Positions 13,004 to 31,123 are shown, numbered from the stretch's first letter. The stretch: DNA of 48,347 nucleotides from Nitrososphaerota archaeon (GCA_017610265.1 JAFCCH010000006.1:1-48347), one strand, 5' to 3'. The notes: generated by a model from the letters alone, not told the origin. Made by a program: numbers and translations.

Positions 13004-13765
13004 TTGAACACAATAAAAGACATGGTTCTTCTATGGATTTTGCTTGCGACAATTGCAAACAGTTTTTTGGCGCTTGCGGGCGCAGTAACATTGGGGTGGA
13101 GCAAAAAAACACTCGAACGAATTTTGCATGCATTGGTTGGCTTTAGTGCAGGAGCATTATTGGGCGGTGCATTCTTCCACCTTATTGCAGAATCTCTTGA
13201 AAAAATGCCAACAATGGAAACATTTTACCTCGTTTTTGCAGGATTTATCCTGTTCTTCCTGATTGAAAGATTTTTGCACTGGCACCATTGCCACAAAGGC
13301 AAATGCGATGTGCATGTTTTTTCTTATTTAATTCTTGTGGGAGATGGCATTCACAATTTTATTGATGGCCTTATAATTGCGGCAAGCTTTCTGATAGATA
13401 TTAAGGTAGGAATTGTGACAACAATTGCTGTAATGAGCCATGAATTACCCCAAGAGCTTGGCGATTTTGGAGTCCTCGTTTACGGCGGCTTTAGCAGGAA
13501 AAAAGCCTTGTTATACAATTTTGCCTCACAGCTTACAAGCGTTGCAGGCGGTATAGTTGGCTTCTTTTTTCTTGGCACAAGTGGTCTTGCTGTTTACCTT
13601 TTGCCTTTTGCGGCAGGGGGCTTTATTTACATTGGAGCCTCTGATTTGATTCCTGAACTGCACAAGCAGGAAAACATGAAAAAAGCAATGACTGCATTTG
13701 TGTTTTTCCTGGTTGGAATAGGCTTTATGATTGGAGTAAAGTTGTTTTTTGAAGGAGCTCAATGA
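13004..13765 (+). CDS. ZIP family divalent-metal transporter (ZupT-like)
   Basis: Eight predicted TM helices. 'HELPQELGDFGVL' and 'HNFIDGL' are the conserved ZIP metal-binding helices, and the loop 'HWHHCHKGKCDVH' is His/Cys-rich. TTG start at 13004; alternative ATG at 13022. Confidence 0.8.
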   Translation: MNTIKDMVLLWILLATIANSFLALAGAVTLGWSKKTLERILHALVGFSAGALLGGAFFHLIAESLEKMPTMETFYLVFAGFILFFLIERFLHWHHCHKGKCDVHVFSYLILVGDGIHNFIDGLIIAASFLIDIKVGIVTTIAVMSHELPQELGDFGVLVYGGFSRKKALLYNFASQLTSVAGGIVGFFFLGTSGLAVYLLPFAAGGFIYIGASDLIPELHKQENMKKAMTAFVFFLVGIGFMIGVKLFFEGAQ

Positions 13766-13792
13766 TAATGCTTTTTTAAAGAAAAGCAAAGC

Positions 13793-13821
13793 TTTAAATA
13801 CTATTATGAACATATGTTCAT
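13793..13821 (+). promoter_or_regulatory. TATA box (tttaaata, 13793-13800) followed by a perfect 16-bp palindrome ATGAACATATGTTCAT (13806-13821) abutting the DUF134 start codon
   Basis: Read directly. The palindrome is its own reverse complement and ends 1 nt before ATG 13823. TATA-to-ATG spacing of about 25 nt suggests a leaderless or short-leader mRNA with the operator over the TSS. Confidence 0.6.
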
Positions 13822-13822
13822 T

Positions 13823-14125
13823 ATGGCTAGGCCAAAAAAGACAAGATTTGTTGCATGCAATCCAGAGGCAACTTACTTCAAGCCAAGGGCAATTCCCTTA
13901 TTTGAATTAGAAGAAGTTGTGCTTAAATTAGAAGAAATTGAGGCATTAAAGCTGAAATTTTTGGAAAAATGCGAGCAGGAAGAGGCAGCAAAGAAAATGA
14001 AGGTAAGCAGAACAACCTTTTGGCGAGTGTTTAACAGCGCTGGAAAAAAAGTTGCAGATGCATTGATTAACGGCAAGGCCATTAGGATTGAAGGAGGGCA
14101 TTATGCCCTTAAAAAGGAGGTATAA
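13823..14125 (+). CDS. DUF134 (UPF0251) family putative DNA-binding protein
   Basis: 'MARPKKTRFVACNPEATYFKPRAIPL...LEEVVLKLEEIEALKL...QEEAAKKMKVSRTTFWR' matches the DUF134 N-terminal box plus its sigma-70 region-4-like HTH. Start moved to ATG 13823 (track: 13814). Confidence 0.75.
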   Translation: MARPKKTRFVACNPEATYFKPRAIPLFELEEVVLKLEEIEALKLKFLEKCEQEEAAKKMKVSRTTFWRVFNSAGKKVADALINGKAIRIEGGHYALKKEV

Positions 14126-14128
14126 AAA

Positions 14129-14284
14129 ATGCCTGGAAGAGGAAGAATGGGCGGATTTGGAATGGGACTGGGAGGCAACTGCGTTTGCCCAAATTGTGGA
14201 GCAACAGCAGCACACCAGCGAGGAATGCCCTGCACTCAGCAAAAATGCCCAAAATGCGGAAGCACAATGACAAGAGAAAGGTAA
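14129..14284 (+). CDS. unlisted 51-aa protein: Gly/Arg/Met-rich N-terminus plus CxxC...CxxC zinc ribbon
   Basis: My translation: MPGRGRMGGFGMGLGGNCVCPNCGATAAHQRGMPCTQQKCPKCGSTMTRER. A strong SD 'aggagg' (14115-14120) lies 8 nt upstream. It starts 3 nt after the DUF134 stop. It falls below the 60-aa cutoff of the ORF track. Confidence 0.6.
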   Translation: MPGRGRMGGFGMGLGGNCVCPNCGATAAHQRGMPCTQQKCPKCGSTMTRER

Positions 14285-14334
14285 TTTTGTTTGAATAAAG
14301 CATTAATTGAACAAGTTGAAAAAAGTGAATTTAA

Positions 14335-15519
14335 ATGAATAAACTTGAAAAAGCAGCAGTTATTTCCGTAATTGGAAACGCATTTGTTTCAGTAATCAAA
14401 TTTGCAGCAGGAACAACGTTTGGCTCTGTTGCATTGGTGGCCGATGCAATCCACTCTTTTACCGACATAATCGGAAGCATTGCAGTTTTCTTTGGAGTAA
14501 GGTTTGCTGATGTCAAAAGTGACAAATTCCCTTACGGTTTGTACAAACTTGAAAACTTTGTAAGCCTTTTTATTGCGCTTATAATTTTTTGGTCAGGAAT
14601 TGAAATTGCCTTGGAATCAATTGCAAAGCTTGGCTCTCCAACCCAAATAACAGGATTTGAAGCAATAATTGTTGCAATTGTTGCTCTTGTAATTGTTTAC
14701 GCACTTGCAAAATACAAGGAAAAAATTGGCAAAGCAGAGCACAGCCCAAGCATGATTTCAGAGGCAAAGCACAGCATGCTTGACGCATATGGCAGTGTTG
14801 GTGTTGTTGCGGCCCTTGGTTTAAGCTTTGCAGGCTTTCCAATATTTGATCCTTTAATAGGAGTTATTATTTCGGTTCTTGTATTCAAAGCAGGCTTGGA
14901 AATTTTTATGGATTCAACAAAGGTTTTGCTTGACATAAGCCTTGATTACAAAACAATGAAAAAAATTGAAAAAATTGCCACAGCACAAAAGGGCGTTAAG
15001 GTAAAGGAAATTCTTGCAAGAAACAGCGGCCGATACATCTTTGTTGATATAATGCTCGAAACAGGTTTGAAGGACTTGAAAAAAGTTGACAAGCTGCACA
15101 GGCAGTGCGAAACAGACATAAGGAAAGCAGTGCCAAGGATTGACAAGATAATGGTTGACATTCACTACAAGAAAAAGCCAGTGCTTGTTTATGCAATTGC
15201 ATTGGAGAAAAGAAGTGAAAAAAGCTCTATTGCGATGGAATTTGGAACCGCAAAATTTTTCGGCGTTTTTAAGGCCGAAAATAGAGCAGGAAAAGGCGGG
15301 CTTATTGAAAGCAAAATAATTGAAAATCCGCATTGCAAAAACGAGGAAAGGAAAGGAATTCTTGCGGCAGAGCTTCTTGCAAAAAACAATGTTGATGTGC
15401 TTTTTAGTAGGGAAAAAATGCGAAAAGGCGGTGCCTTTTATGCATTACAGGAAAGTTTTGTTGAAATGAGAAAAACCGAGAAAAAAACATTTAATAAATT
15501 GCTGGAGGAATTCAAGTAA
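14335..15519 (+). CDS. cation diffusion facilitator (CDF) metal efflux transporter fused to a C-terminal NifX/NifB-like (Nitro_FeMo-Co) domain
   Basis: Residues 1-290 are a CDF: 'VISVIGNAFVSVIKFAAG...VALVADAIHSFTDIIGS', 'HSMLDAYGSVGV', and a cytoplasmic CTD 'ILARNSGRYIFVDIMLE'. Residues ~295-394, 'VYAIALE..SSIAMEFGTAKFFGVFK....IENPHC....GILAAELLAKNNVDVLFSREKMRKGGAFYALQESFVEM', follow the NifX-like pattern (HFG.A..F...ENP...G...A..L...vdvvi...G..A...L). Confidence 0.6.
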   Translation: MNKLEKAAVISVIGNAFVSVIKFAAGTTFGSVALVADAIHSFTDIIGSIAVFFGVRFADVKSDKFPYGLYKLENFVSLFIALIIFWSGIEIALESIAKLGSPTQITGFEAIIVAIVALVIVYALAKYKEKIGKAEHSPSMISEAKHSMLDAYGSVGVVAALGLSFAGFPIFDPLIGVIISVLVFKAGLEIFMDSTKVLLDISLDYKTMKKIEKIATAQKGVKVKEILARNSGRYIFVDIMLETGLKDLKKVDKLHRQCETDIRKAVPRIDKIMVDIHYKKKPVLVYAIALEKRSEKSSIAMEFGTAKFFGVFKAENRAGKGGLIESKIIENPHCKNEERKGILAAELLAKNNVDVLFSREKMRKGGAFYALQESFVEMRKTEKKTFNKLLEEFK

Positions 15520-15543
15520 TTGAAAGGAAAAAAATTAACTTGA

Positions 15544-15864
15544 ATGCCCTTGGCTTTTTTTGGAGAAATTTTAATGATTGAAAATGAAACAATTAATTTG
15601 GTTGGATTTGTCATTCTTGCTTTTTCATTAATATTTGCTTACACAGGAACCCTTTCCCAATGCACTTACAGGAAATATATTGTTCCTGCAATGCTTTTGG
15701 TTATAGCAGTAATATTTTTACAGGAAATGATTGCAGCTTTAATGATTGCGGTTTCAGCCACATTGTTTTACAGTGGATATAAAGGATATGGAATTGAAGT
15801 CAAAAAAAAAGAGGCAGAAAAAACAAAAAATGAAACAAAGGAAGAAAAAACGGAGGAGATTTAA
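15544..15864 (+). CDS. small membrane protein (2-3 TM) with Lys/Glu-rich tail
   Basis: Hydrophobic ORF tightly packed between the CDF and NifX-like genes. The start is uncertain (alternative ATG at 15574). Confidence 0.4.
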   Translation: MPLAFFGEILMIENETINLVGFVILAFSLIFAYTGTLSQCTYRKYIVPAMLLVIAVIFLQEMIAALMIAVSATLFYSGYKGYGIEVKKKEAEKTKNETKEEKTEEI

Positions 15865-16434
15865 ATGAAGGTAGCAATTAGCGCCGTATCAGAAGATTTG
15901 AAACAGCCTGTAAACCTTGTTTTTGGAAGGTGCCCAGGCTATGTTATAGCTGAAATTGAAGGAAAAGAAGTAAAGGAAACAAAGTTTGTGCAAAATCCCG
16001 GAATGAACACAGGAATGGGAGCAGGAATTGCTGCAGCACAAGTAGTTGCAGGGCAAGGCGCACAGGCAGTTATTAGCGGCAATGTAGGGCCAAACGCGTT
16101 CATGGTTTTGCAGCAGTCGGGAATAAAGGTTTATAAAGTAGCAGATTTGAGTGTAGAGCAGGCATTAAAGCAGTTTGCTGACGGGAAGCTTGAAGAAGTA
16201 AAGGACTCAACTGCACCAGGCCACTTTGGAATGGGCCAAGGTCAAGGAACGGGCCAGGGCGCAGGAAGAGGCGCTGGAGCAGGAATGGGCCAAGGTCAAG
16301 GAACGGGCCAGGGGGCAGGAAGAGGCGCTGGAGCAGGAATGGGCCAAGGAAGAGGAACAGGAATGGGCCGAGGTGCCGGAGCTGGTGCAGGCAGAGGAAC
16401 AGGCGCAGGTCGCGGAAGAGGTCCGCCAATGTAA
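15865..16434 (+). CDS. NifX/NifB-like (Nitro_FeMo-Co domain) protein with ~70-aa Gly/Arg/Gln/Met-rich repetitive C-terminal tail
   Basis: 'MKVAISAVSEDL...VFGRCPGYVIAEIEGKEV...QNPG...GAGIAAAQVVAGQGAQAVISGNVGPNAFMVLQQSGIKVY' is a canonical NifX-like domain. The tail is 'GMGQGQGTGQGAGRGAGA' x2, then GMGQGRGTGMGRGAGAGAGRGTGAGRGRGPPM. Confidence 0.8.
   Translation: MKVAISAVSEDLKQPVNLVFGRCPGYVIAEIEGKEVKETKFVQNPGMNTGMGAGIAAAQVVAGQGAQAVISGNVGPNAFMVLQQSGIKVYKVADLSVEQALKQFADGKLEEVKDSTAPGHFGMGQGQGTGQGAGRGAGAGMGQGQGTGQGAGRGAGAGMGQGRGTGMGRGAGAGAGRGTGAGRGRGPPM
16228..16335 (+). repeat. 54-bp coding tandem repeat x2 (1 mismatch), decaying into degenerate G/R-coding repeats to ~16430
   Basis: Unit ggaatgggccaaggtcaaggaacgggccagggcgcaggaagaggcgctggagca at 16228-16281 and 16282-16335. 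Confidence 0.9.
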
Positions 16435-17789: not shown

Positions 17790-19133
17790 ATGAAAACCGA
17801 TGTATTAGTTATTGGCGGAGGACCTGCAGGAGCCGTAACTGCTTTGACTGTTAAAAAAAATTATCCTGAAAAAAAGGTTGTGCTGATTAAAAAAGATGAG
17901 AATTGCCTTATCCCATGTGGAATTCCCTATATTTTTGGCACTTTGCCAAGCGTTGAAAGCGATTGCATGCCAAACAAGCCGTTGGAAGAAAAAGGCATTG
18001 AACTTGTTTTTGAATCTGTTGAAAAAATTGATTCAAAAAGCAAAAAGGTTTTGACTGCGAAAAAAAAGGAAATTGGATATGATAAGCTTGTTCTTGCAAC
18101 AGGTTCTGTTGTAGTTAAGCCACCAATTAAGGGAATTGAATTAGACAAGGTGTTCTTTGTTGAAAAAAGTATGAAGAATATTGAAAATCTGAAAAATGCC
18201 GCCGGCAAAGCTGAAAACATTGTTATAATTGGAGGCGGCTTTATCGGTGTTGAGATTGCTGATGAATTGTGTAAAAGAGGCAAAAAGGTAAGCATTGTCG
18301 AAGCAGTGCCCTGTTTGTTGCAGCAGGCTTTTGACGAAGAATTCTGCAAAACTGTTGAACAGCGCTTAAAGAAGTTAGGAATAAAAATTTACACAAGTAC
18401 TATGGCAAAAGAAATAACAGGAAACAAAAAAGTTAAAGGCATTAAGCTTTCCGGCAAGCAGTCAAAAACACTGAAATCAGATTTGGTAATTGTCTGCGTC
18501 GGAGCAAAGCCAAATTCTTTACTTGCGGAAAAAGCAGGAATAGAGCTTGGAACAGGAAAGGGAATTATTGTTGATGAATATATGAGAACCAGTAAAAAAG
18601 ACATTTTTGCTGTTGGAGATTGTGCTGAAAAGAAAAGCTTTTTTACAAGACAGGTTTCAAATGTAATGCTTGCATCAACTGCTGCGTCAGAGGCAAGAAT
18701 TGCTGGCAACAACCTTTTTCAGTTTAGGGTAATACGGCAGAATAAGGGAACTATTGCAATCTTTTCAACATTTGTTGCAGGCATTGGATTGGCAGCAGCA
18801 GGACTTACAGAATCAGAGGCAAAAAGACAGTGCTTTGAATATGTTACAGGAAAAGCAGTAGCAAAAGACATGCATCCTGGTTGCCTGTCTGGATCAAGTG
18901 AGTTAAAGGTAAAAATGGTTTTTTCAAAAGACAGTGGAGTCTTGCTTGGATGTCAGGCAATGGGAGGAAAGGCAGTTGGAGAATTAATAAATCTTGCAGG
19001 CTTTGCAATACAAAACAATGCAACAATTTCAGAAATAAGCACTTTGCAGATTGGGACTCATCCCCTGCTTACCCCTGCCCCAACAAACCACCCGTTTGTG
19101 CTTGCAGCAGAAGCGGCAATGGCAAAACTTTAA
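17790..19133 (+). CDS. FAD-dependent pyridine nucleotide-disulfide oxidoreductase (NADH oxidase / CoA-disulfide reductase family)
   Basis: 'VLVIGGGPAGA' FAD dinucleotide fold, single redox Cys in 'NCLIPCGIPY', second Rossmann 'IVIIGGGFIGVE', and 'FAVGDCA'. Confidence 0.8.
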   Translation: MKTDVLVIGGGPAGAVTALTVKKNYPEKKVVLIKKDENCLIPCGIPYIFGTLPSVESDCMPNKPLEEKGIELVFESVEKIDSKSKKVLTAKKKEIGYDKLVLATGSVVVKPPIKGIELDKVFFVEKSMKNIENLKNAAGKAENIVIIGGGFIGVEIADELCKRGKKVSIVEAVPCLLQQAFDEEFCKTVEQRLKKLGIKIYTSTMAKEITGNKKVKGIKLSGKQSKTLKSDLVIVCVGAKPNSLLAEKAGIELGTGKGIIVDEYMRTSKKDIFAVGDCAEKKSFFTRQVSNVMLASTAASEARIAGNNLFQFRVIRQNKGTIAIFSTFVAGIGLAAAGLTESEAKRQCFEYVTGKAVAKDMHPGCLSGSSELKVKMVFSKDSGVLLGCQAMGGKAVGELINLAGFAIQNNATISEISTLQIGTHPLLTPAPTNHPFVLAAEAAMAKL

Positions 19134-19154
19134 GCGTTTTTTAGACTGGTTAAA

Positions 19155-19916
19155 ATGGACAAAATAAAGTTAGAAGGAATTGGGAAAAAAATTGCAGTGG
19201 TCAGCGGAAAAGGAGGGACAGGAAAAAGCACCTTTTCTGCATTGCTTGCATTGAGTTTGGCAGCCAAAGGAAAAAAGGTTGGATTGCTCGACATTGATGT
19301 TCACGGACCAAATATTCCGCTGTTGCTTGGAATTGAAGGAAAAAAGATGGGTATTGGCGAGAATAAAAAATTATTGCCTGTTGAGGCTGCACCAAACTTG
19401 AAGGTTGTTTCCACAAGCTTTATGCTTGAAAAAGAACAGGCTTTGATTTGGAGAGGTCCAATAAAGTCAAATTTTATTAGGCAATTAGCAGAGCAAACTG
19501 ATTGGGGCGAACTTGATTTTCTTATTGTAGATACCCCGCCAGGAACAGGCGATGAAATAATCACTTTAACACAATTAATTGATTTAACAGGCACAATAAT
19601 TGTTGGAACACCTCAGGCTGCCGCAGTTTATGATGTAAGAAAATCCATTGATGCAATGAGGTCAACTAAAGTAAAGATTTTGGGATTGGTTGAAAATATG
19701 AGTTATGTTGTTTGCCCAAAATGTGGTGAAATAATAGACTTGTTTGGAAAAGGGGAAATAAAAAAGCTGGCTGAAAAAGAAAAAATTGGTTTTTTTGGAG
19801 GCATGCCACTTGATCCAAAATTGAGAAAAATGACGGATGTGGGAAAAATTGAGCTGAAAAGCATTGAAAAGGAAATTACTGATTTGTTAACCAAGATAAT
19901 TAAAAGCATTGAATAA
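19155..19916 (+). CDS. Mrp/NBP35/ApbC family Fe-S cluster carrier ATPase
   Basis: Deviant Walker A 'VVSGKGGTGKST', 'LLDIDVHGPNIP', 'LIVDTPPGTGDE', and the 'CPKCG' cluster-ligand motif. Confidence 0.85.
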   Translation: MDKIKLEGIGKKIAVVSGKGGTGKSTFSALLALSLAAKGKKVGLLDIDVHGPNIPLLLGIEGKKMGIGENKKLLPVEAAPNLKVVSTSFMLEKEQALIWRGPIKSNFIRQLAEQTDWGELDFLIVDTPPGTGDEIITLTQLIDLTGTIIVGTPQAAAVYDVRKSIDAMRSTKVKILGLVENMSYVVCPKCGEIIDLFGKGEIKKLAEKEKIGFFGGMPLDPKLRKMTDVGKIELKSIEKEITDLLTKIIKSIE

Positions 19917-19961
19917 AGGGATTGCGCTTTTCTTCAATTTCCTGATACAAAAATTTTTTAG

Positions 19962-20030
19962 GCCGTTTTTCATTAACCAAAATAATTTTAAGCTTTGAAA
20001 GCCCATTGGTTATTTCAAAACGGCTTTTTT
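19962..20030 (+). terminator. long two-tier hairpin followed by a T6 tract downstream of mrp
   Basis: Outer stem GCCGTTTT (19962-19969) / AAAACGGC (20017-20024). Inner stem TAACCAA (19974-19980) / TTGGTTA (20006-20012). Followed by tttttt (20025-20030). Confidence 0.5.
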
Positions 20031-20051
20031 AACAAACAAAACAGTAATGGG

Positions 20052-20089
20052 CATACGCCCAAAACGTATTTAAAATGGTTTGGCGTATG
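20052..20089 (+). promoter_or_regulatory. BRE/TATA-like element embedded in an 8-bp perfect inverted repeat (CATACGCC-N22-GGCGTATG); shares a 23-nt motif with 26749-26771
   Basis: CATACGCCCAAAACGTATTTAAA (20052-20074) versus CATATGCCCAAAACGTATTTAAA (26749-26771): 22 of 23 identical, including an 18-nt perfect run. Confidence 0.6.
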
Positions 20090-20144
20090 TTTAATAGAGC
20101 AAAAATAAAGGCTTAATTGCCTGCAAAATGTAGAGGTTGAACAA

Positions 20145-20435
20145 ATGGTTTCTAAAGAAGAAGTTGAAAAGGCTTTGGAAAAGGCAATGCATCCAGAATT
20201 TGACAAGCGCCTTTCCGAGTGCGGTATGATAAGGGCAATTGAAGTAAAGGAAAACAAGGCTGTTGTGACTTTGGTTGTGCCGTTTTTGCATGTTCCAATC
20301 AAAGACGACTTGATTCAGATAATAAAAAGCAAGGTAAAAGAAAGGGCAGGCATTGAAGCCGAAGTGAAAATAAAGGAAATGAATGAAAAAGAAAAAGAGC
20401 AATTTGGAAAAATAGTGAAGGAAGTAAGGGGCTAA
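20145..20435 (+). CDS. DUF59 / MIP18 family Fe-S assembly protein (SufT/PaaD-like)
   Basis: 'VEKALEKAMHPEFDKRLSECGMIRAIEVKENKAVVTLVVP' fits the DUF59 pattern, including the conserved Cys. Confidence 0.65.
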   Translation: MVSKEEVEKALEKAMHPEFDKRLSECGMIRAIEVKENKAVVTLVVPFLHVPIKDDLIQIIKSKVKERAGIEAEVKIKEMNEKEKEQFGKIVKEVRG

Positions 20436-20442
20436 TTTTTCA

Positions 20443-20928
20443 ATGCAAAAAATAGTGTATAAGCCAATAGGAATAATTCATTCAAGCTACAAGCAAGTAG
20501 AAGGAGTGCCTATACAGGGTGCGCTGTCAAAAAATTCCAAGGGTGAAGTAGAGGTTTTTCCAGAGTATAAAGCAGGCTTAAAGGACCTTGAAGGATTTTC
20601 ACATATTATCCTGCTTTACCATTTTCATTTGGCAAAAGGATATTCTCTGTTAAGCAGGCCTTTTTTGGAAAATAAAAAACATGGAATTTTTGCAATCAGA
20701 GCGCCAAAAAGGCCGAATCCCATAGGATTCTCGGTAGTTAAATTAGAAAAAATAACTGGAAATCTGTTGTATATAAACGAAGTTGATATTGTTGACTACA
20801 CAATTTTGCTGGACATTAAACCATATGTTTCAAAATTTGATGTTAGAACAGGCACAAAAGACGGTTGGCTAACAAAAAAAATAATGGACGACAGAGAACA
20901 CAAAGCTGATAACAGATATAGCCCATAA
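20443..20928 (+). CDS. TsaA/TrmO family (UPF0066) SAM-dependent methyltransferase
   Basis: 'YKPIGIIHS...EGVPIQ...EVFPEYKAGLKDLEGFSHIILLYHFH...GIFAIRAPKRPNPIGFSVVKL...VDIVDYTILLDIKPY' is collinear with the TrmO family. Confidence 0.75.
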   Translation: MQKIVYKPIGIIHSSYKQVEGVPIQGALSKNSKGEVEVFPEYKAGLKDLEGFSHIILLYHFHLAKGYSLLSRPFLENKKHGIFAIRAPKRPNPIGFSVVKLEKITGNLLYINEVDIVDYTILLDIKPYVSKFDVRTGTKDGWLTKKIMDDREHKADNRYSP

Positions 20929-21052: not shown

Positions 21053-21460
21053 TTGTTAGATCCAGATTTAGAAAAAATTAAAGCGGAAAAATTAAGTAAA
21101 ATGCAGGAACAAATGCGCCAAAATGAGGTGAAAAAAATGAAGATTGAAGTAAACGATGAAAATTTTCAAAAAGAAGTAATTGACAAAAGCGGGAAAGTTC
21201 CTGTTGTGGTTGACTTTTGGGCGACATGGTGTATGCCCTGCCTTATGCTTGGGCCAATACTTGAAAAACTTGCCAAAGAATTTGAGGGAAAATTTGTTCT
21301 TGCAAAAGTAAATGTTGACGAAAGCAGGGCAGCAAGCGAAAAATATGCAATTTCAAGCATTCCAGCAGTAAAAATATTTAAGGATGGCAAGGTTGCTGAT
21401 GAGTTCATCGGAGCTTTACCAGAAGCGATGGTTAAACAATGGCTTCGTAAAAACATTTGA
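21053..21460 (+). CDS. trx: thioredoxin with non-canonical WCMPC active site (paralog of 29638-30045)
   Basis: 'VVVDFWATWCMPCLMLGPILEKLAKEF...AKVNVDE...YAISSIPAVKIFKDGK'. Start set at TTG 21053 by alignment with the paralog, which also starts at a TTG ('M(L/P)D.(D/E)(L/T)EKIKAEK'). The track's longer ORF from 20987 is not supported. Confidence 0.8.
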   Translation: MLDPDLEKIKAEKLSKMQEQMRQNEVKKMKIEVNDENFQKEVIDKSGKVPVVVDFWATWCMPCLMLGPILEKLAKEFEGKFVLAKVNVDESRAASEKYAISSIPAVKIFKDGKVADEFIGALPEAMVKQWLRKNI

Positions 21461-21471
21461 AGGAGATCAAA

Positions 21472-22281
21472 ATGAAGATAAAAAAATTAACTATTTTTCC
21501 AGGTCGTGGCAAACAGGGAAAAAAAGAAGATTTTGAAAAAATCGAGATTTTGGCCGGGCAAAAAATAGGGATTGTTGGTCCAACAGGTTCGGGAAAAAGC
21601 CAATTGCTGTACGATATTGAAAAGCTTAGCCAGGGAGAAACAAAGACCGGGCGAAAGATTTTGATAAACGATAACAAAGTGCAAAAACACCTTAAAACAG
21701 ATCCGGCAAGGAAAATAATTGGTTATTTAACCCAGCATATGAATTTTATGACAGATACGACTGTCCAAAATTTTTTGGAAACCCATATAATGACAAGGGG
21801 TCGACACAGGTCAGAGGAAAACACCAAAGAGCTTGTTGAAAAGATAATAGAGGCTGCAAACACAATAACAGGTGAGGAAATCAGCAAGAATACGAATTTG
21901 CTTATTTTATCAGGGGGGCAGTCAAGAGCATTAATGGTTGCAGATCTTGCATACGTCAGCGAATCACCCATTATCTTAATAGATGAAATAGAAAATGCAG
22001 GTATAAGAATTCGTGAAGCCCTTAGCCTTCTTATCAAAAAGGGAAAAATAGTTTTTTTGGTTACTCATGACCCAATTCTTGCTTTGGATACTGACAAACG
22101 ACTTGTTATGAAAAGAGGAGCCATAAGCAACATTATTTACACTTCGATTAAGGAACGGGGGATTGCAAACTATCTCTCTTGGATTAACAACTACCTTTTA
22201 GATGTAAGGGAAGAAGTAAGAAAGGGAAAAAAGGTTGAAGAATTGAGACTAATATGCACGCCTGTGGGGGAAGAAAAATGA
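21472..22281 (+). CDS. stand-alone ABC-type ATPase (no permease partner in the window)
   Basis: Walker A 'GIVGPTGSGKSQ', signature 'LSGGQSRAL', Walker B 'ILIDEIEN', H-loop 'VTHD'. ATG 21472 lies 7 nt after SD 'aggag', which directly follows the trx stop. The track start is TTG 21457. Confidence 0.7.
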   Translation: MKIKKLTIFPGRGKQGKKEDFEKIEILAGQKIGIVGPTGSGKSQLLYDIEKLSQGETKTGRKILINDNKVQKHLKTDPARKIIGYLTQHMNFMTDTTVQNFLETHIMTRGRHRSEENTKELVEKIIEAANTITGEEISKNTNLLILSGGQSRALMVADLAYVSESPIILIDEIENAGIRIREALSLLIKKGKIVFLVTHDPILALDTDKRLVMKRGAISNIIYTSIKERGIANYLSWINNYLLDVREEVRKGKKVEELRLICTPVGEEK

Positions 22282-23069
22282 AAATGATAATCTTTGGTGG
22301 CACGCCAGGAAGCGGAAAAACAAGTGTAATCAAATTTGTAATGCAGGAACTGAAAGACTTAAGCATTCATTATGCAAAATTTGATGTCCTGACCACAGAA
22401 GACCACTTGCTAATAAAAGACAAGTTTGGAATAAACACCGAAAAGAAAATATCTGGAGAAATATGCCCAGACCATTATGCTGCACTTGAAATCCCAAAAA
22501 TCGTTGAAAAGCACAAAAACAAAGACCTAATTATAATAGAAACAGCCGGACTTTGTCTAAGGTGCTCACCGTACATAAACGAAGGGCTTGCAATCAATAT
22601 CTTGAACATTTTGGCAGGAAAGCCTTCGAGTTATGGTCCACTATTAACACACGCTGACGTAGTAGCTACAACTAAGGGCGACCTGATTTCACAAGCAGAA
22701 AGGGAAATCTTCAGGTCGGAAGTTCTAAAAGTTGCCAAAAACGCTTCAATAATTGAAGCAAATGGCCTAACAGGAGAAGGTGCGATTGACATAGCAGAGG
22801 CAATAAAAGAAAGTCCTGAAATAAAAGGAAAACTTACCTTGAAGCATTCCATGCCAACCGCTGTCTGCGGATACTGTTATGGAAACAAAACAATCGATTC
22901 AGAAGAAACATTAAAGCGTTACTCGCTCGGTAAGGAATTGAAAGCAAGGATTCCAAATTTGAACTGCGGAAAATGTGGATTCAAATCATGCAACGAATTC
23001 ATAAGAGCGGTTTTGGATGAAAAAGTTAATGAAGATAAGTGCCCTTACTTAGAAGACAAGAAGGAATAG
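22278..23069 (+). CDS. G3E-family (HypB/UreG/CobW-like) P-loop NTPase fused to a C-terminal CX2CX4CX16C 'putative Fe-S cluster' domain
   Basis: 'MKMIIFGGTPGSGKTS', 'LIIIETAGLCLRCSPY' (compare HypB 'ENVGNLVCP'), and 'TKGDL' (NKxD-like). The C-terminal 'LNCGKCGFKSCNEFIRAVLDEKVNEDKCPYL' is the 4Fe-4S domain type seen in RnfB and corrinoid Fe-S proteins. ATGA overlap with the upstream stop. Confidence 0.65.
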   Translation: MKMIIFGGTPGSGKTSVIKFVMQELKDLSIHYAKFDVLTTEDHLLIKDKFGINTEKKISGEICPDHYAALEIPKIVEKHKNKDLIIIETAGLCLRCSPYINEGLAINILNILAGKPSSYGPLLTHADVVATTKGDLISQAEREIFRSEVLKVAKNASIIEANGLTGEGAIDIAEAIKESPEIKGKLTLKHSMPTAVCGYCYGNKTIDSEETLKRYSLGKELKARIPNLNCGKCGFKSCNEFIRAVLDEKVNEDKCPYLEDKKE

Positions 23070-23071
23070 AA

Positions 23072-23416
23072 ATGAAAAAAGGGCTTAAAAAAGAACTTGA
23101 TAATGCAATAGACGCATCAGGCACTGAATTAAAATGGGTTCCAGACCCAAAAGGATACTTTACAATAAAACCCATTTTCTCACAAAAAAAAGTTTTTGTA
23201 AGACATTATAACTCAAAAGATGTTTTAGAACAAACTTTTGCAGGAGCAAACACAACAGAAATAGTCCAGGCAATTATTCAAAGAAAACTAATCTCAAGAT
23301 TAGACCACGCTGCCTATCTTGGAAAAGAAATAGAAAAAGCAATAATTGCATTAAAGAACAAACTCAAGTACATTCAAGGAGATGAGTTGCACTTAGAAAA
23401 TAAAACAGGAAATTAG
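23072..23416 (+). CDS. DUF4346-like small protein
   Basis: 'KWVPDPKGYFTIKP...VFVRHYN......IISRLDHAAYLGKEIEKA' resembles the DUF4346 pattern as I recall it. It starts 2 nt after the upstream stop. Confidence 0.45.
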   Translation: MKKGLKKELDNAIDASGTELKWVPDPKGYFTIKPIFSQKKVFVRHYNSKDVLEQTFAGANTTEIVQAIIQRKLISRLDHAAYLGKEIEKAIIALKNKLKYIQGDELHLENKTGN

Positions 23417-24063: not shown

Positions 24064-25059
24064 ATGGGAAAAAAATCTAAAGAAAGGATGAATGGAACAT
24101 TTCGTTTTGGTAGGTTAGAGAATTTTCCAATATCTTTTTTAGCAGTCTGTTTGGGCTTGTTTGGTTTTACTTTAACATGGCAAAAAGCAGAACAGGTGTT
24201 AAAATTTCCCTTTGTTATAAGTACTGCTTTGCTTTATTTTTCAATTATAGTCAGTGGAGTAATACTTGCAACCTATTTTATGAAACTAGTCAAATACCCT
24301 AAAAAAGTTAAACAAGAGTTTAACCACCCAATAAAACTCAATTTTTACCCAATAATTGCAAAGATTCTTTTGATTGCCAGTATAATTTACCTTGGTTTAA
24401 ACATTGTAATTTCAAAATACCTCTGGTGGGCAGGAGTTGTAATACAATTTATTTTTACAATAGTAATAATGTCTGCGTGGATAAAACATGAAAAATTCGA
24501 AATACACCATATTAACCCATCCTGGTTTATTCCTATTGTAGGCTGTATCATCATACCAATAGCCGGAATTGAACATTTTGCCCCAGAGCTCTCTTGGTTC
24601 TTTTTTAGTATAGGCATCTTTTGGTGGTTAATCTTAACAACAATAGTTATGAATAGAATAATCTTTCACCCCCCAATTTCCAATAAGTTAATGCCTACTT
24701 TTTTTATCTTATTTGCGCCCCCAGCAATAGGATTCATAGCTTTAACAAAATTGTTGGGCGGCATAAATCCCTTTGGAAACATGCTCTACTATTTTGGACT
24801 GTTTTTGTTTATTCTTACCTTATTTCAGTTTAAGATGTTTGCAAAACTTCAATTTTATTTATCGTGGTGGGCATACTCCTTTCCTCTGGCTGCTTTAGCG
24901 ATAGCAACATTTTTATTCTACCATGAAACAAACGCATTTTTCTTTAAGATATTGTCATGGAGTTTATTCATACTGTTAAATTTTACCATGTTGTTGTTAT
25001 TCATCAAAACATTAAAAGCCATAAAAAATAGGATGATCTGTGTAGAGGAAGAGGAATAA
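24064..25059 (+). CDS. TehA/TDT (SLAC1) family anion/tellurite-resistance-type transporter
   Basis: 331 aa, about 10 TM helices. The N-terminal 'LENFPISFLAVCLGLFGFTLTW' is typical of TehA/Mae1 family proteins. Confidence 0.7.
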   Translation: MGKKSKERMNGTFRFGRLENFPISFLAVCLGLFGFTLTWQKAEQVLKFPFVISTALLYFSIIVSGVILATYFMKLVKYPKKVKQEFNHPIKLNFYPIIAKILLIASIIYLGLNIVISKYLWWAGVVIQFIFTIVIMSAWIKHEKFEIHHINPSWFIPIVGCIIIPIAGIEHFAPELSWFFFSIGIFWWLILTTIVMNRIIFHPPISNKLMPTFFILFAPPAIGFIALTKLLGGINPFGNMLYYFGLFLFILTLFQFKMFAKLQFYLSWWAYSFPLAALAIATFLFYHETNAFFFKILSWSLFILLNFTMLLLFIKTLKAIKNRMICVEEEE

Positions 25060-25926: not shown

Positions 25927-26095
25927 AATAAACAAAAAACTGTGCGCTGGCTGTGGAAACTGTGTGGAAGCATGCCCTTTTGAAGTATTGAAAATCAAAG
26001 ATGGAAAAGCAGTAGTCATAAATCCAGAAAAATGCCAAAAATGCGGGGCATGCATGTCTGTTTGCCCAAACAACGCAATCAAAATCGGGGAATGA
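25919..26095 (+). CDS. fdx: unlisted 58-aa 2x[4Fe-4S] ferredoxin
   Basis: My translation: MIKINKKLCAGCGNCVEACPFEVLKIKDGKAVVINPEKCQKCGACMSVCPNNAIKIGE. It has two CxxCxxCxxxCP motifs. It is below the track cutoff and overlaps both neighbours by ATGA. Confidence 0.85.
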   Translation: MIKINKKLCAGCGNCVEACPFEVLKIKDGKAVVINPEKCQKCGACMSVCPNNAIKIGE

Positions 26096-26364
26096 CAATG
26101 GATATAAAGATGAAAAAACTGGCCAAAGAATTTGAGGAATATGCAAAGGCAAATGGTTTTAGATTAAATCCTAACAAAAAAATGTTGAAAGGAACCTTAA
26201 AGGGCCTTATTGAAAATGAAAAAAGGCATGGTAAAAAATACTGCCCTTGCAGAAGGATAACAGAAAACATGGAAGAAAACAAAAAAATAATATGCCCATG
26301 CATTTACCACAAAAAAGAAATTGAAACACAAGGACATTGCCTTTGCCAACTTTTCGTAAGGTGA
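26092..26364 (+). CDS. ferredoxin:thioredoxin reductase catalytic-subunit homolog (FTRC/FDR-like)
   Basis: CPC-X16-CPC-X13-CLC arrangement: 'KKYCPCRRITENMEENKKIICPCIYHKKEIETQGHCLCQLF'. Start at ATG 26092, overlapping the fdx stop. Confidence 0.85.
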   Translation: MTMDIKMKKLAKEFEEYAKANGFRLNPNKKMLKGTLKGLIENEKRHGKKYCPCRRITENMEENKKIICPCIYHKKEIETQGHCLCQLFVR

Positions 26365-26801: not shown

Positions 26802-27635
26802 ATGAAACAAATTGCGATTACAGGAGGCAAGGGAGGAACAGGCAAAAGTACTGTTGCCACAGCTCTGGCAGTAGAGCTTGGAAAAAGCCACAAAGTTTTG
26901 CTTGTTGACGCAGATGTTGACTGTCCAAACGACCACTTACTTTTAGGAATTGAAAGGAAACCGTTGAAAAAGGTTTTTCAAAGGATTCCAAAATGGGATT
27001 TTGAAAAATGCATAAAATGCGGAAAATGTGCCGAAGCATGCAAGATCAATTCCATTTTTGCCCCCAAAGGAAAACAGCCTGTTTTTCTGCCACAGCAATG
27101 TAATGGATGCGGAGCATGTGTTATAACCTGCCCTGCAAAGGCAATAGGCTGGAGTGAAAAGGAAATTGGAGAAGTTTTCAAAGGAAAGGGATATGGCATT
27201 GACTTTATTTCAGGCGAATTAAAAATAAACGAGGCTGTTTCCGAATTTGTTGTCGCATCCTTGAAAGAAGAGGTTGAAAAGATCAAGGAAAGCTATGATT
27301 TTGTCTTGTTTGATACAGCCGCCGGAACTCACTGCGATGTTATTTCAGCATTGGAGGGGTCAAAAATGGCTTTGGCTGTCACAGAGCCAACGCCTTTGGG
27401 AGAGCATGACCTTGAATTAATTATGAAGCTTTTGAAAAAGCTCGGCATAAAATTTGAAATTATTTTAAACAGGTTTGAAAAAGGCGGAAAAAAAATTATT
27501 GAAAATTCAGCAGAAAGACAAGGTAAAACAATTGCTGCAAAAATACCTTACAGTAAAAAAATAATGGAAAGTTACAGCAAGGGAATTCCTGTAAGCCATG
27601 AAAGCATTAAGGCAATTGCGGAGCTGGTTAAATGA
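26802..27635 (+). CDS. MinD/ParA-type P-loop ATPase with inserted 2x[4Fe-4S] ferredoxin domain
   Basis: 'IAITGGKGGTGKSTVA', 'VDADVDCPN', then 'CIKCGKCAEACK' and 'CNGCGACVITCP', followed by the remainder of the MinD fold. Confidence 0.85.
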   Translation: MKQIAITGGKGGTGKSTVATALAVELGKSHKVLLVDADVDCPNDHLLLGIERKPLKKVFQRIPKWDFEKCIKCGKCAEACKINSIFAPKGKQPVFLPQQCNGCGACVITCPAKAIGWSEKEIGEVFKGKGYGIDFISGELKINEAVSEFVVASLKEEVEKIKESYDFVLFDTAAGTHCDVISALEGSKMALAVTEPTPLGEHDLELIMKLLKKLGIKFEIILNRFEKGGKKIIENSAERQGKTIAAKIPYSKKIMESYSKGIPVSHESIKAIAELVK

Positions 27636-28519
27636 AAAAAATAACTGTTTTGTCAGGCAAGGGTGGAGTAGGCAAGAGCAGCATTGCGGCATCGCTTGCT
27701 GTTTTGCTTGCCGAGAAACACAAAATTGTTTGCGCTGACTGCGATGTTGACGCTTCAAACCTTGCGCTTGTGTTTGGGTTAAGGGAAAAGGATTTTGACG
27801 AATGGAAAAAAATTTCAACAAACGAGAAAGCAAGGCTTGATGAAGGAAAGTGCAATGGCTGCAAAAAATGCGTTGAAAGCTGTTACTTTAATGCAATCAA
27901 ATGGAATGAGGAAAAAAAGCAGCCTATTTTTGACGAGTTTTCCTGCGAGGGCTGCGGAGCATGTGAAATCACCTGCCCTGAAAAGGCAATAAGCCTTGTT
28001 CAGGTTGAAAATGCAAAAATCGGTTATGGGAAAACAAAATACGGTTTCACAGTTGTTTCAGGCCAACTTGAAATGGGCGAATCAGGTTCAGGAAAAGTTG
28101 TAGCAGAGGTAAGAAAGCTTGCCGAAGAAAAAGGCAAGGGCGCAGAAATTATGGTAATTGATGCCGCAGCAGGAATAGGTTGCCCTGTAATTGCATCAGT
28201 TGTCGGAAGCGATTTTGTTATAGGAGTAACAGAGCCAACCCCTTCAGGCCTTTCTGACTTGAAAAGGGCATTGCAGATGACAAGACATTTTGGAATTGAA
28301 TGCGGAATAGTGATAAACAAACACGACCTAAATCCAGAAATGTCAAAAACTATTGAAAAATTTGCAGAAGAAAATTCAATGCCTGTTTTGGCAAAAATAG
28401 GCTATGACAAAAACTTTGTTAATGCATTGGTTAACCTTGTGCCAATAATAGAATACAACCCAAAAATAAGACCTGTTTTTGAGGAAATCCTGCAAAAACT
28501 GCCAACAGGAAAGAAATAA
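27632..28519 (+). CDS. MinD/ParA-type P-loop ATPase with inserted 2x[4Fe-4S] ferredoxin domain (second paralog)
   Basis: 'ITVLSGKGGVGKSSIA', 'CADCDVDASN', 'CNGCKKCVESC' and 'CEGCGACEITCP'. ATGA overlap with the upstream paralog. Confidence 0.85.
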   Translation: MKKITVLSGKGGVGKSSIAASLAVLLAEKHKIVCADCDVDASNLALVFGLREKDFDEWKKISTNEKARLDEGKCNGCKKCVESCYFNAIKWNEEKKQPIFDEFSCEGCGACEITCPEKAISLVQVENAKIGYGKTKYGFTVVSGQLEMGESGSGKVVAEVRKLAEEKGKGAEIMVIDAAAGIGCPVIASVVGSDFVIGVTEPTPSGLSDLKRALQMTRHFGIECGIVINKHDLNPEMSKTIEKFAEENSMPVLAKIGYDKNFVNALVNLVPIIEYNPKIRPVFEEILQKLPTGKK

Positions 28520-28964: not shown

Positions 28965-29054
28965 ATGGCTTGTCCCGGAGACAAAATAAGAAGTAAAGGA
29001 AAAGGAAGAGGCCTTGGAACAGGAAAAGGAAAAGGCCCAATTGGAAGGAGGTGA
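28965..29054 (+). CDS. candidate 29-aa Gly/Lys/Arg-rich micro-ORF
   Basis: My translation: MACPGDKIRSKGKGRGLGTGKGKGPIGRR. SD 'aaaggaggtg' (28949-28958) lies 7 nt upstream. Its stop overlaps the SD of the DUF5320 gene. Coding status is unproven. Confidence 0.35.
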   Translation: MACPGDKIRSKGKGRGLGTGKGKGPIGRR

Positions 29055-29058
29055 AAAA

Positions 29059-29484
29059 ATGCCAAGAGGAGATGGAACAGGACCAAACGGCTCTGGCCCA
29101 ATGACTGGAAGAGCAGCAGGATACTGTGCAGGCAATGCAGCACCAGGCTATGCAAATTCTTATAGGGGCAGAGGCTTTTATGGAAGAGGCGCAGGCTTTG
29201 GACGTGGCTTTGGAAGAGGCGCAGGCTTTGGACGTGGCTTTGGAAGAGGCGCAGGCTTTGGACGTGGCTTTGGAAGAGGTGTTTATGCCACAAGAACCCC
29301 AGTAAGCAATTATGACGCTTATGCACCTTATTCAATGCCATATGTAGGACCTTACACACAAACACAGCAGCCCAGCGAAGAAGAGGCTAAAAGGCAGGAA
29401 AAAACTGCTTTGGAACAGGAAACAAAGGCTTTGGAAGAAGGACTTGCAGAAATAAAAAAAAGGCTTGCAGAATTGGGAAAATAA
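29059..29484 (+). CDS. DUF5320 family protein with expanded GRGAGFGRGF repeats and C-terminal coiled coil
   Basis: 'MPRGDGTGPNGSGPMTGRAAGYCAG' is the DUF5320 N-terminal box. A C-terminal 'EEEAKRQEKTALEQETKALEEGLAEIKKRLAELGK' helix follows. SD 'ggaggtg' lies upstream. The track ORF starts at 29014 inside the micro-ORF region. Confidence 0.75.
   Translation: MPRGDGTGPNGSGPMTGRAAGYCAGNAAPGYANSYRGRGFYGRGAGFGRGFGRGAGFGRGFGRGAGFGRGFGRGVYATRTPVSNYDAYAPYSMPYVGPYTQTQQPSEEEAKRQEKTALEQETKALEEGLAEIKKRLAELGK
29182..29280 (+). repeat. perfect 30-bp coding tandem repeat x3 (+9-nt partial)
   Basis: ggaagaggcgcaggctttggacgtggcttt at 29182-29211, 29212-29241 and 29242-29271, with no mismatch. Confidence 0.95.
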
Positions 29485-31042: not shown

Positions 31043-31123
31043 AAGGATTTAAACCTAAGCTTTGAGAAACTCACTTAAATGTTATGTTCATTTAATAAAT
31101 TTAACAAAAAACAGTGGTTTTGT

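Follow-up and report, generated by a model that had tools for sequence, protein, structure and literature searches.

The subject of this work is a gene module encoded on the plus strand of a 48,347-nucleotide stretch from a Nitrososphaerota archaeon (GCA_017610265.1, JAFCCH010000006.1:1-48347; hereafter the window). Its core is composed of two P-loop nucleoside triphosphatases (NTPases), a soluble ATP-binding cassette (ABC)-type ATPase and a G3E-family protein fused to an iron-sulfur (Fe-S) domain of family PF04060, and it is this three-part unit, not a cassette of four genes, that forms the module. Related loci were drawn from species-representative genomes and, after removal of duplicates, numbered 81; in all 78 that have upstream DNA, archaeal and bacterial alike, the ABC gene lies immediately upstream of the G3E gene, the other three loci being cut by contig ends and left out of this count. 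The adjacency is far beyond chance. It persists in more distant versions, in either gene order, so that the ABC-G3E pairing spans two domains of life and three architectures. We give a probability of roughly 45% to the reading that the two NTPases act as an Fe-S-linked chaperone or processing complex tied to thiol/sulfur redox chemistry.

The G3E protein carries, in this order, the motifs GTPGSGKTS, IIIETAGLCLRCSPY and TKGD, followed by the cysteine pattern C230-x2-C233-x4-C238-x16-C255. Its Walker A segment, G8-TPGSGKT-S16, conforms to GxxxxGK(S/T) and is invariant in the homologs; the G4 segment, T132-K-G-D135, conforms to (N/T)KxD, with the Lys and Asp invariant in all three architectures. 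The glutamate of the G3 motif, to which the G3E class owes its name (PMC9164220), is found as the invariant E88 of IIIE88TAG. The protein exceeds the PF02492 gathering threshold, and its AlphaFold2 model has a UreG/HypB-like fold, with a predicted local distance difference test score (pLDDT) of 87 that falls to 60-75 around C197-G-Y-C200. The top Foldseek matches of the model are UreG (4hi0_E and 5xkt_A) and HypB (2wsm, 2hf8, and 4lps), at TM-scores normalized to the target of 0.65-0.74 (0.73 with E = 4e-11 for 4hi0_E and 0.71 for 2wsm), while GTPases of the signal recognition particle type and MeaB rank below them. Motifs, family model and fold thus bear out the G3E-like character that a preliminary description of this DNA, made from the sequence alone, had given to the protein.

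Four G3E subfamilies are known: UreG, HypB, MeaB, and COG0523 (PMC9164220). Judged by its motifs and profile scores, the protein of the window is a member of the superfamily but belongs to none of the four. It stays far below the cut-off of the HypB equivalog model TIGR00073 (38.1 versus 121.2 bits) and of the CobW model TIGR02475 (15 versus 332 bits); it has no match to the UreG model TIGR00101 at E <= 0.01, and its methanogen ortholog reaches 25 bits where 204 are needed. The GCxCC or CxCC motif typical of COG0523/CobW proteins is absent between Walker A and Walker B, the CxxC motif coming after Walker B instead. Since the HypB, UreG, and CobW cut-offs all fail, the protein appears to form a G3E clade of its own. 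When 1.84 billion representative proteins were searched with a profile, no more than 527 relatives came up at E <= 1e-3, and 43 reached E <= 1e-30, which indicates that the clade is small and distinct.

Several cysteine and histidine residues of the protein are invariant across homologs, namely those of the CPDH motif, of C93-L-R-C96, of C197-G-Y-C200, and of the PF04060 domain. CPDH is paired by HMMER with CPH, the nickel motif of Klebsiella UreG (5xkt), which makes C63-P-D-H66 a candidate metal site at the dimer interface; C93, C96, C197, and C200 are further candidate ligands. Neither CPDH nor C197-G-Y-C200 figured in the preliminary description. The Fe-S domain has the spacing Cx2Cx4Cx16C, scores above the PF04060 threshold and is predicted to bind a [4Fe-4S] cluster. 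Its sequence matches in the PDB are the large subunit of the corrinoid iron-sulfur protein (CFeSP; 4djd_C, residues 5-48) and RnfB (7zc6_B), in agreement with the CFeSP/RnfB type proposed beforehand. The same PF04060 domain is fused to a small P-loop GTPase in the archaeal MobB-FeS proteins (NCBIfam PRK14494), which match weakly; there the NTPase is of the MobB and not the G3E family, no ABC partner is known, and the proteins are themselves uncharacterized.

The ABC protein displays all five hallmarks of its family, a Walker A GPTGSGKS, a Q-loop, an LSGGQ signature, a Walker B ILIDE, and an H-loop THD, whose key residues are invariant or nearly so in the homologs. Beyond the nucleotide-binding domain (NBD) it extends into a long C-terminal helix that ends in an invariant R-x3-R-x-G. 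The AlphaFold2 model (pLDDT 88) shows an ordinary NBD fold, which MacB, LptB, and SmsC match about equally well. No permease gene adjoins the ABC gene in the window or in the 78 related loci, a count that covers the neighboring genes; the description of this ATPase as a soluble orphan is therefore upheld. In addition, two G3E-ABC fusions were found in the representative search, P0246 (613 residues) and P0249 (509 residues), in which the ABC part is 41-45% identical to that of the window over its full length, C-terminal helix included. These are classic Rosetta-stone fusions, from which we infer a physical complex of the two proteins.

ABC ATPases that likewise lack membrane domains and stand beside a Cys-rich, Fe-S-related partner are SufC, in SufBC2D, and SmsC, in SmsCB. 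SmsC (9h78_C, 9h7x) is among the structural matches of the ABC protein, and one member of the family lies beside sufBCD and a ferritin gene. In the module, however, the partner is a GTPase and not a β-helix protein of the SufB/SufD kind. A SufC-like identity of the ABC protein itself was considered and rejected: by profile hidden Markov models (HMMs) the protein is not specifically SufC-like, and SmsC is one of many equal Foldseek matches. An anti-phage defense system was likewise set aside, PADLOC giving weak generic matches for the ABC protein and none for the G3E protein, the thioredoxin or the DUF4346 protein encoded next to it.

Homologs of the G3E protein at 60-96% identity occur in DPANN archaea, in bacteria of the candidate phyla radiation (CPR; also named Patescibacteria), and in Dependentiae (TM6). 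The closest, at 96%, come from metagenome-assembled Iainarchaeum (DPANN) contigs of hydrothermal sediment. Within DPANN the fused form was found in Iainarchaeum, Woesearchaeota, Pacearchaeota, Aenigmarchaeota, Nanoarchaeota, and Altiarchaeales. A neighbor-joining tree separates nearly clean archaeal and bacterial clades, about 35% apart, and most exceptions carry taxon labels that probably reflect binning errors. Two such contigs, L001 (JAFCCG010000005.1) and L003 (JAFCBY010000037.1), are labeled Chloroflexi and Falkowbacteria; their cassette is 96% identical to that of the Iainarchaeum contigs, has the same gene order and clusters inside the archaeal clade, so that here too the binning is probably at fault. 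The Dependentiae-like contigs are independently bacterial, as they carry MnmE, GidA, and MraY. Altogether, hundreds and not thousands of 185,579 species representatives were matched, with a patchy distribution among DPANN and CPR. A viral origin found no support, a scan of IMG/VR with an alignment of window-type (fused) sequences returning no relative.

More distant relatives, with 37-39% identity to the window in the G3E protein and 46-51% in the ABC protein, keep all hallmark motifs (in the G3E protein CPDH, ExAGLCxRCxP, (T)KxD, SQAEREhF, and CxxCxG) and occur in two further architectures. In the first, here architecture B, the order is ABC, G3E without the Fe-S domain, and a separate Fe-S protein of about 220 residues assigned to COG2000, in which a Cys/His-rich domain not covered by any Pfam model comes after the PF04060 domain. 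Its archaeal hosts are Methanobacteriales, Methanococcales, Methanosarcinales, Methanotrichaceae, and Methanomassiliicoccales, and its bacterial hosts Bacteroidota, Spirochaetota, and Clostridiales. Databases offer no other names here than 'GTP-binding protein', 'cobalamin synthesis protein P47K' and 'Ni2+-binding GTPase'. The second, architecture C, has the order SBP_bac_6-like protein, G3E, and ABC (L203, L207, and other loci between L188 and L228); it is hosted by Fusobacterium (including F. nucleatum), Treponema and other Spirochaetota, Firmicutes, Izemoplasmatales, and Methanospirillum, often beside FecCD/Peripla_BP_2 importers and NifH/NifDK-like genes. A PF04060 domain, fused or separate, is thus found in two of the three architectures. 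Cultured human-associated anaerobes with architecture C include Fusobacterium (F. nucleatum, L203, and F. watanabei, L207), Treponema, Lachnoanaerobaculum, and [Eubacterium] yurii. Labilibaculum euxinus has both the COG2000 type (L159) and the SBP_bac_6 type (L204) in one genome.

The trio has been recorded in six methanogen orders, as an ATPase, a Ni2+-binding GTPase, and a COG2000 Fe-S protein, colocalized with coenzyme M genes, and its role was called unknown (PMC12068725, PLoS Genet 2025, Fig. 2); we found nothing else published on it. A literature search on G3E proteins combined with an ABC ATPase and Fe-S returned one general review (PMC9164220), and searches on DUF4346, PF04060, and MJ0119-MJ0121 nothing relevant. 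Compared with the methanogen trio, the module of the window has adjacent ABC and G3E orthologs, the order ABC-G3E-FeS and the PF04060 domain in common, and by sequence comparison it is orthologous to the trio in two of its three parts. The differences are that the Fe-S domain is fused to the GTPase instead of being separate, that the Cys/His-rich C-terminal domain of COG2000, which was searched for, is absent from the window and from L001-L124, and that the fused form is hosted by DPANN archaea, CPR bacteria, and Dependentiae. The surroundings differ as well: the DPANN/CPR neighbors are thioredoxin, ferredoxin, and a protein resembling the catalytic subunit of ferredoxin:thioredoxin reductase (FTR), while a search for the coenzyme M enzymes ComA and cysteate synthase found neither in the window or the DPANN/CPR loci.

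For the neighbor counts, the archaeal clade comprised 24 and the bacterial clade 53 loci, the testable denominators being smaller. Thioredoxin is encoded directly upstream of the ABC gene in 15/20 archaeal and 12/44 bacterial loci, a small 2x[4Fe-4S] ferredoxin within 900 nucleotides downstream of the G3E gene in 14/20 and 35/42, and an FTR-like protein (PF02943) within 1.5 kb downstream of it in 7/20 and 18/42, respectively. The thioredoxin of the window qualifies for its family by TIGR01068, but its active site is WCMPC instead of the canonical WCGPC. Indeed, among 31 module-adjacent thioredoxins the canonical CGPC is found in none of the 30 readable active sites, which read CAPC, CMPC, CQPC, CIPC, and others. 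In CPR loci the operon is opened by a CsoR-family regulator (PF02583) with the pattern Cys...Asn-x3-Cys, that is, two conserved cysteines and an Asn in place of the CsoR His. This two-Cys, no-His fingerprint we take to be that of the CstR type of persulfide/sulfite sensors. A TDT/SLAC1 channel, of the family that, we presume, includes the yeast sulfite pump Ssu1, is an occasional neighbor, directly after the G3E gene in L005, L008, and L017 and near it in L013.

In Dependentiae-like loci (L129-L133) two unannotated proteins flank the ABC-G3E pair, one of about 200 residues upstream and a probably secreted zinc-finger protein of 209-263 residues downstream, with a Memo-AMMECR1 fusion gene on the opposite strand; the Pfam tables of these loci list no ferredoxin or FTR-like gene.

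The fourth gene of the window, encoding a DUF4346 protein, has another history. It is syntenic in 5 of the 81 loci (L001-L004 and L006), all from one Iainarchaeum-like subclade that contains the window (5/24 archaeal, 0/53 bacterial). With this distribution it is best seen as a recent lineage-specific insertion and not as a conserved member of the module. The preliminary description had joined the ABC ATPase, the G3E/Fe-S protein, and DUF4346 into a conserved triad, and this does not survive the synteny test that it proposed itself. Its link of DUF4346 to MtrA-like and pterin proteins does hold, the NCBIfam matches falling at the C-termini of MtrA and dihydropteroate-synthase-like models; a PDB sequence search with DUF4346 gave no match. 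An HMM scan of each protein (Pfam, NCBIfam) also agreed with the four domain identities that had been assigned.

Under the reading that we prefer, the ABC and G3E proteins would join in a single complex, probably made of an ABC dimer and a G3E dimer, much as SufC pairs with SufB/SufD. Binding and hydrolysis of nucleotide would there power the loading of an inorganic cargo and its passing on. This cargo, perhaps a metal ion or an Fe-S/sulfur species, may be held on the invariant Cys/His site made up of CPDH plus CxxC and of the CxxC tail. The [4Fe-4S] domain, supplied by the co-encoded ferredoxin, would relay electrons or act as a redox gate; the thioredoxin and FTR-like pair might keep the ligand thiols, or the client, reduced, and DUF4346 would be a recent passenger. 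The methanogen relatives stand beside sulfite-using enzymes of coenzyme M synthesis, so that the module probably handles a metal or sulfur species. The other family contexts all involve metallocofactors or sulfur: SufB-SufC-SufD with ferritin, a radical SAM enzyme, and DUF364 (a putative metal-chelation domain), as single contexts, in addition to the nitrogenase-like/FecCD and ComA/cysteate synthase settings. Taken together they point more to Fe-S or sulfur chemistry than to nickel or zinc. The general idea of a nucleotide-driven redox module, advanced in the preliminary description, thus remains the best one, without the four-gene cassette and the possible corrinoid cargo that went with it. 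In the SufBCD context (L140:2480-3852), two tandem paralogs of the COG2000 C-terminal domain, 82% identical, precede sufB-sufC-sufD and the ferritin gene; the PF04060 cysteine pattern is absent in the first and present in the second.

Several points weigh against this reading. No client enzyme is conserved beside the DPANN/CPR version. G3E relatives handle nickel, zinc, cobalt/B12 or iron, so that no particular metal can be read off from family membership, and the ABC fold is too generic to hint at the partner interface. Thioredoxin and the FTR-like protein are frequent but not universal (roughly 30-75% by clade) and may share only a redox island with the module, and the patchy distribution argues that the module is no housekeeping necessity.

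A different and more specific proposal, which we regard as rather unlikely, is an inorganic-sulfur system (sulfite or persulfide), in which the module would serve to produce, transport or detoxify a persulfide or sulfur oxyanion. ComA or cysteate synthase would receive sulfite from it in methanogens, and the fused DPANN/CPR version would work with a ferredoxin-FTR-thioredoxin chain. Cysteate synthase uses phosphoserine and sulfite. ComA adds sulfite to phosphoenolpyruvate (PMC3087415). The two enzymes are non-homologous, yet both depend on sulfite, and the gene of one or the other ends 0-140 nucleotides upstream of the ABC gene, on the same strand, in 18 of the 20 archaeal trio loci with enough upstream DNA; three more archaeal trio loci also show a sulfonate synthase upstream of ABC. 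The enzyme is ComA in Methanobacteriales and Methanococcales and cysteate synthase in Methanosarcinales, Methanotrichaceae, and Methanomassiliicoccales. A Clostridiales contig has the trio followed by cysteate synthase (TIGR03844, 437 versus 325 bits), a serine-palmitoyltransferase-like gene, and a short-chain dehydrogenase/reductase gene, a sulfonolipid-like set. The published colocalization with coenzyme M genes speaks in the same direction, as do the thioredoxin, FTR-like, presumed CstR-like, and presumed Ssu1-family neighbors in DPANN/CPR. On the other hand, no siroheme or known sulfite-forming domain is present, and we know of no G3E protein or ABC ATPase that acts on sulfur compounds. 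The bacterial trio loci of Bacteroidota and Spirochaetota have neither ComA nor cysteate synthase within 5 kb, nor do the DPANN/CPR loci have either, and the SBP_bac_6 version instead has FecCD importers and nitrogenase-like genes for neighbors. In its most far-reaching form, the proposal describes a previously unrecognized NTP-driven inorganic-sulfur system that supplies sulfite in methanogens and exists as a streamlined fused version, running on ferredoxin, FTR, and thioredoxin, in DPANN, CPR, and Dependentiae; this form we hold to be a little more doubtful again. To our knowledge, the origin of sulfite in sulfide-grown methanogens has never been explained.

It is also unlikely, in our judgment, that the G3E protein is a dedicated nickel (or zinc) metallochaperone of the HypB/UreG type serving one metalloenzyme, with the ABC ATPase as an accessory. 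The resemblance is real: P-loop, Glu-type G3, (N/T)KxD G4, and predicted fold are shared with both families, which also provide the top sequence and fold matches; the Cys-Pro-(Asp)-His motif lies at the CPH nickel site of UreG, and HypB likewise has a Cys after Walker B. In two Methanococcales genomes the trio has genes for the nickel-insertion protein LarC and an McrD-like protein next to it; the window encodes ZIP and CDF metal transporters 6-8 kb upstream of the module, and FUR and ZnuA lie near it in L148. Yet the HypB cut-off is missed by far, UreG gives no match, and, unlike in HypB and UreG, the obligate partner is an ABC ATPase and the protein has an extra CxxC tail and a [4Fe-4S] domain. 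The annotated recurrent neighbor clusters and Pfam tables, against which no dedicated hyp/hydrogenase or ure/urease query was run, brought to notice neither HypA and hydrogenase-maturation genes nor UreE, UreF, UreH, and urease genes. A chaperone of this kind would leave the fused Fe-S domain and the thioredoxin, ferredoxin, and FTR-like companions unexplained, and we are not aware that Dependentiae and many CPR need nickel enzymes.

We are more doubtful still that the ABC protein is the energizing subunit of an importer with membrane parts encoded elsewhere, the G3E protein receiving the imported metal. NBDs of transporters are the nearest matches of the ABC domain, and SBP_bac_6-like proteins and FecCD/Peripla_BP_2 importers adjoin the distant version. 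These adjacent FecCD importers, however, come with a separate ABC ATPase of their own; in none of the 78 DPANN/CPR/Dependentiae loci does a permease gene adjoin the pair, and the fusion of the ABC protein to a soluble GTPase argues for a cytoplasmic role. A four-gene cassette for the maturation or repair of a corrinoid or pterin cofactor, with DUF4346 as an integral part, as first proposed on the strength of the CFeSP N-terminal domain PF04060, the occurrence of DUF4346 on MtrA-like and dihydropteroate-synthase-like proteins, and the tight coupling of the four genes in the window, is essentially excluded by the restricted synteny of DUF4346; the conserved companions are instead thioredoxin, ferredoxin, and the FTR-like protein, or the sulfite-dependent sulfonate synthases in methanogens, and across all versions of the module there is no recurrent gene for a corrinoid- or pterin-binding protein.

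The classic metal-delivery chaperones are G3E GTPases, namely HypB, UreG, MeaB, and the CobW/ZNG1 group. A G3E clade always found with a membrane-less ABC ATPase, to which it is sometimes fused, and with a CFeSP-type Fe-S domain would represent a new kind of two-NTPase machine; should the inorganic-sulfur proposal be true, it would be a fifth functional branch of the G3E proteins, with a soluble ABC ATPase as obligate partner. The module is one of few multi-gene modules common to DPANN archaea and CPR bacteria at 60-70% identity, and the metal and sulfur handling of these organisms is poorly understood. As unfused relatives are present in organisms that grow in culture and of which some are open to genetic work (Methanothermobacter, Methanococcus voltae, Methanolobus, Fusobacterium nucleatum, and Labilibaculum), its function is testable. 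A link of the module to an unexplained step in the sulfur metabolism of methanogens is plausible, and because its genes are so tightly linked to ComA as well as to cysteate synthase, a long-standing gap, the source of sulfite for coenzyme M, can be tested directly.

The features of the module and its companions are listed in Table 1. The thioredoxin gene ends with a TGA stop at 21458-21460, which is followed by a Shine-Dalgarno-like AAGGAG (21460-21465) and the ABC start codon ATG at 21472; between ABC and G3E, stop and start overlap in ATGA (22278-22281), and the G3E stop TAG (23067-23069) is separated by 2 nucleotides from the DUF4346 start at 23072. Direct reading of the sequence confirms these junctions as they had been described. 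The left boundary had been set at 21053, where there is no start codon; the thioredoxin coding sequence most likely begins at ATG 21137, with GAGGTG 6 nucleotides upstream, and the homolog alignments begin there. In the window, the ferredoxin gene is displaced by about 2.8 kb from the G3E gene by inserted genes: DUF4346, a Fer4/NifX-like gene, the TDT/SLAC1 channel, and a methyltransferase lie between G3E and the ferredoxin/FTR-like genes, which overlap in ATGA.

Table 1. Coordinates of the module, its motifs, and companion genes in the window.
Feature	Position	Strand	Basis
Thioredoxin (WCMPC)	21137..21460	+	PF00085 E = 5.5e-28; TIGR01068 111.2 bits vs cut-off 96.8
Soluble ABC-type ATPase, 269 residues	21472..22281	+	PF00005 ABC_tran E = 2e-15
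G3E-family P-loop NTPase fused to PF04060 domain, 263 residues	22278..23069	+	PF02492 36.5 bits vs 20.7; PF04060 39.9 vs 23
C63-P-D-H66 motif of the G3E protein	22464..22475	+	invariant in homolog alignments
G3/Walker B with Glu, then CxxC: E88-T-A-G-L-C93-L-R-C96-S-P-Y99	22539..22574	+	invariant
C197-G-Y-C200 (CxxCxG), end of G domain	22866..22877	+	invariant in all three architectures
CFeSP/RnfB-type Fe-S domain (predicted): C230, C233, C238, C255	22953..23048	+	PF04060
Stand-alone PterinBD-DUF4346 protein, 114 residues, no Cys	23072..23416	+	PF14251 75 bits vs 29.6
TDT/SLAC1/TehA-family anion channel	24064..25059	+	PF03595 E = 1.7e-50
2x[4Fe-4S] ferredoxin, 58 residues	25919..26095	+	Fer4 E = 6e-19
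FTR catalytic-subunit-like protein, CPC...CPC...CLC	26092..26364	+	PF02943 E = 3.6e-22

The module is flanked by genes for an Mrp/NUBPL protein and a DUF59 FeS-assembly protein and by NifX-like and MinD-ferredoxin genes. The host is seen to be an archaeon, of the DPANN group, with split rpoB and rpoA genes together with aEF-2 at 36.6-47.8 kb. The region from about 13 to 29 kb, cassette included, forms a single long plus-strand island of metal, Fe-S, and thiol-redox genes. It includes a metal-related cluster (13004-16434) of a ZIP transporter, a DUF134 regulator, a CDF cation-efflux fusion, and a stand-alone NifX-like protein; the fusion (14335-15519) is unusual in that the CDF protein carries a C-terminal NifX/NifB-type 'Nitro_FeMo-Co' domain. 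Upstream of the cassette, 17790-20928 encodes a pyridine-nucleotide disulfide oxidoreductase, the Mrp/NUBPL Fe-S carrier ATPase, the DUF59 'FeS_assembly_P' protein, and a TrmO-like protein. Downstream, two tandem MinD/CooC-like P-loop ATPases (26802-28519), overlapping in ATGA, each have an inserted 2x[4Fe-4S] ferredoxin domain, and this pair recurs near the module in many CPR and DPANN loci. At 29014-29484 there is a gene for a DUF5320-like protein whose repeat is rich in Gly and Arg (GRGFGRGAGF and similar); genes like it (cluster c6) turn up again in related loci, next to DUF134 and NifX-like genes.

At 31079-32754, the gene for an exported or membrane-anchored thioredoxin-like protein (CPVC) overlaps the start of that for a multi-pass membrane protein, whose NPC and LPC motifs resemble those of a CcdA/DsbD-type transmembrane thiol-disulfide carrier and for which Pfam gives only a weak SfLAP match. 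Homologs of these two genes occur in 10 related loci, and in L058 they are directly upstream of the thioredoxin-ABC-G3E genes. Two Logan contigs (L138 and L139, from SRR22184545 and SRR22184549) have an ABC-G3E-FeS+X trio amid glycosyltransferase, methyltransferase, and sugar epimerase genes, all on one strand; the run includes a phage SU10-adaptor-like gene, and the contig may represent a virus or mobile element.

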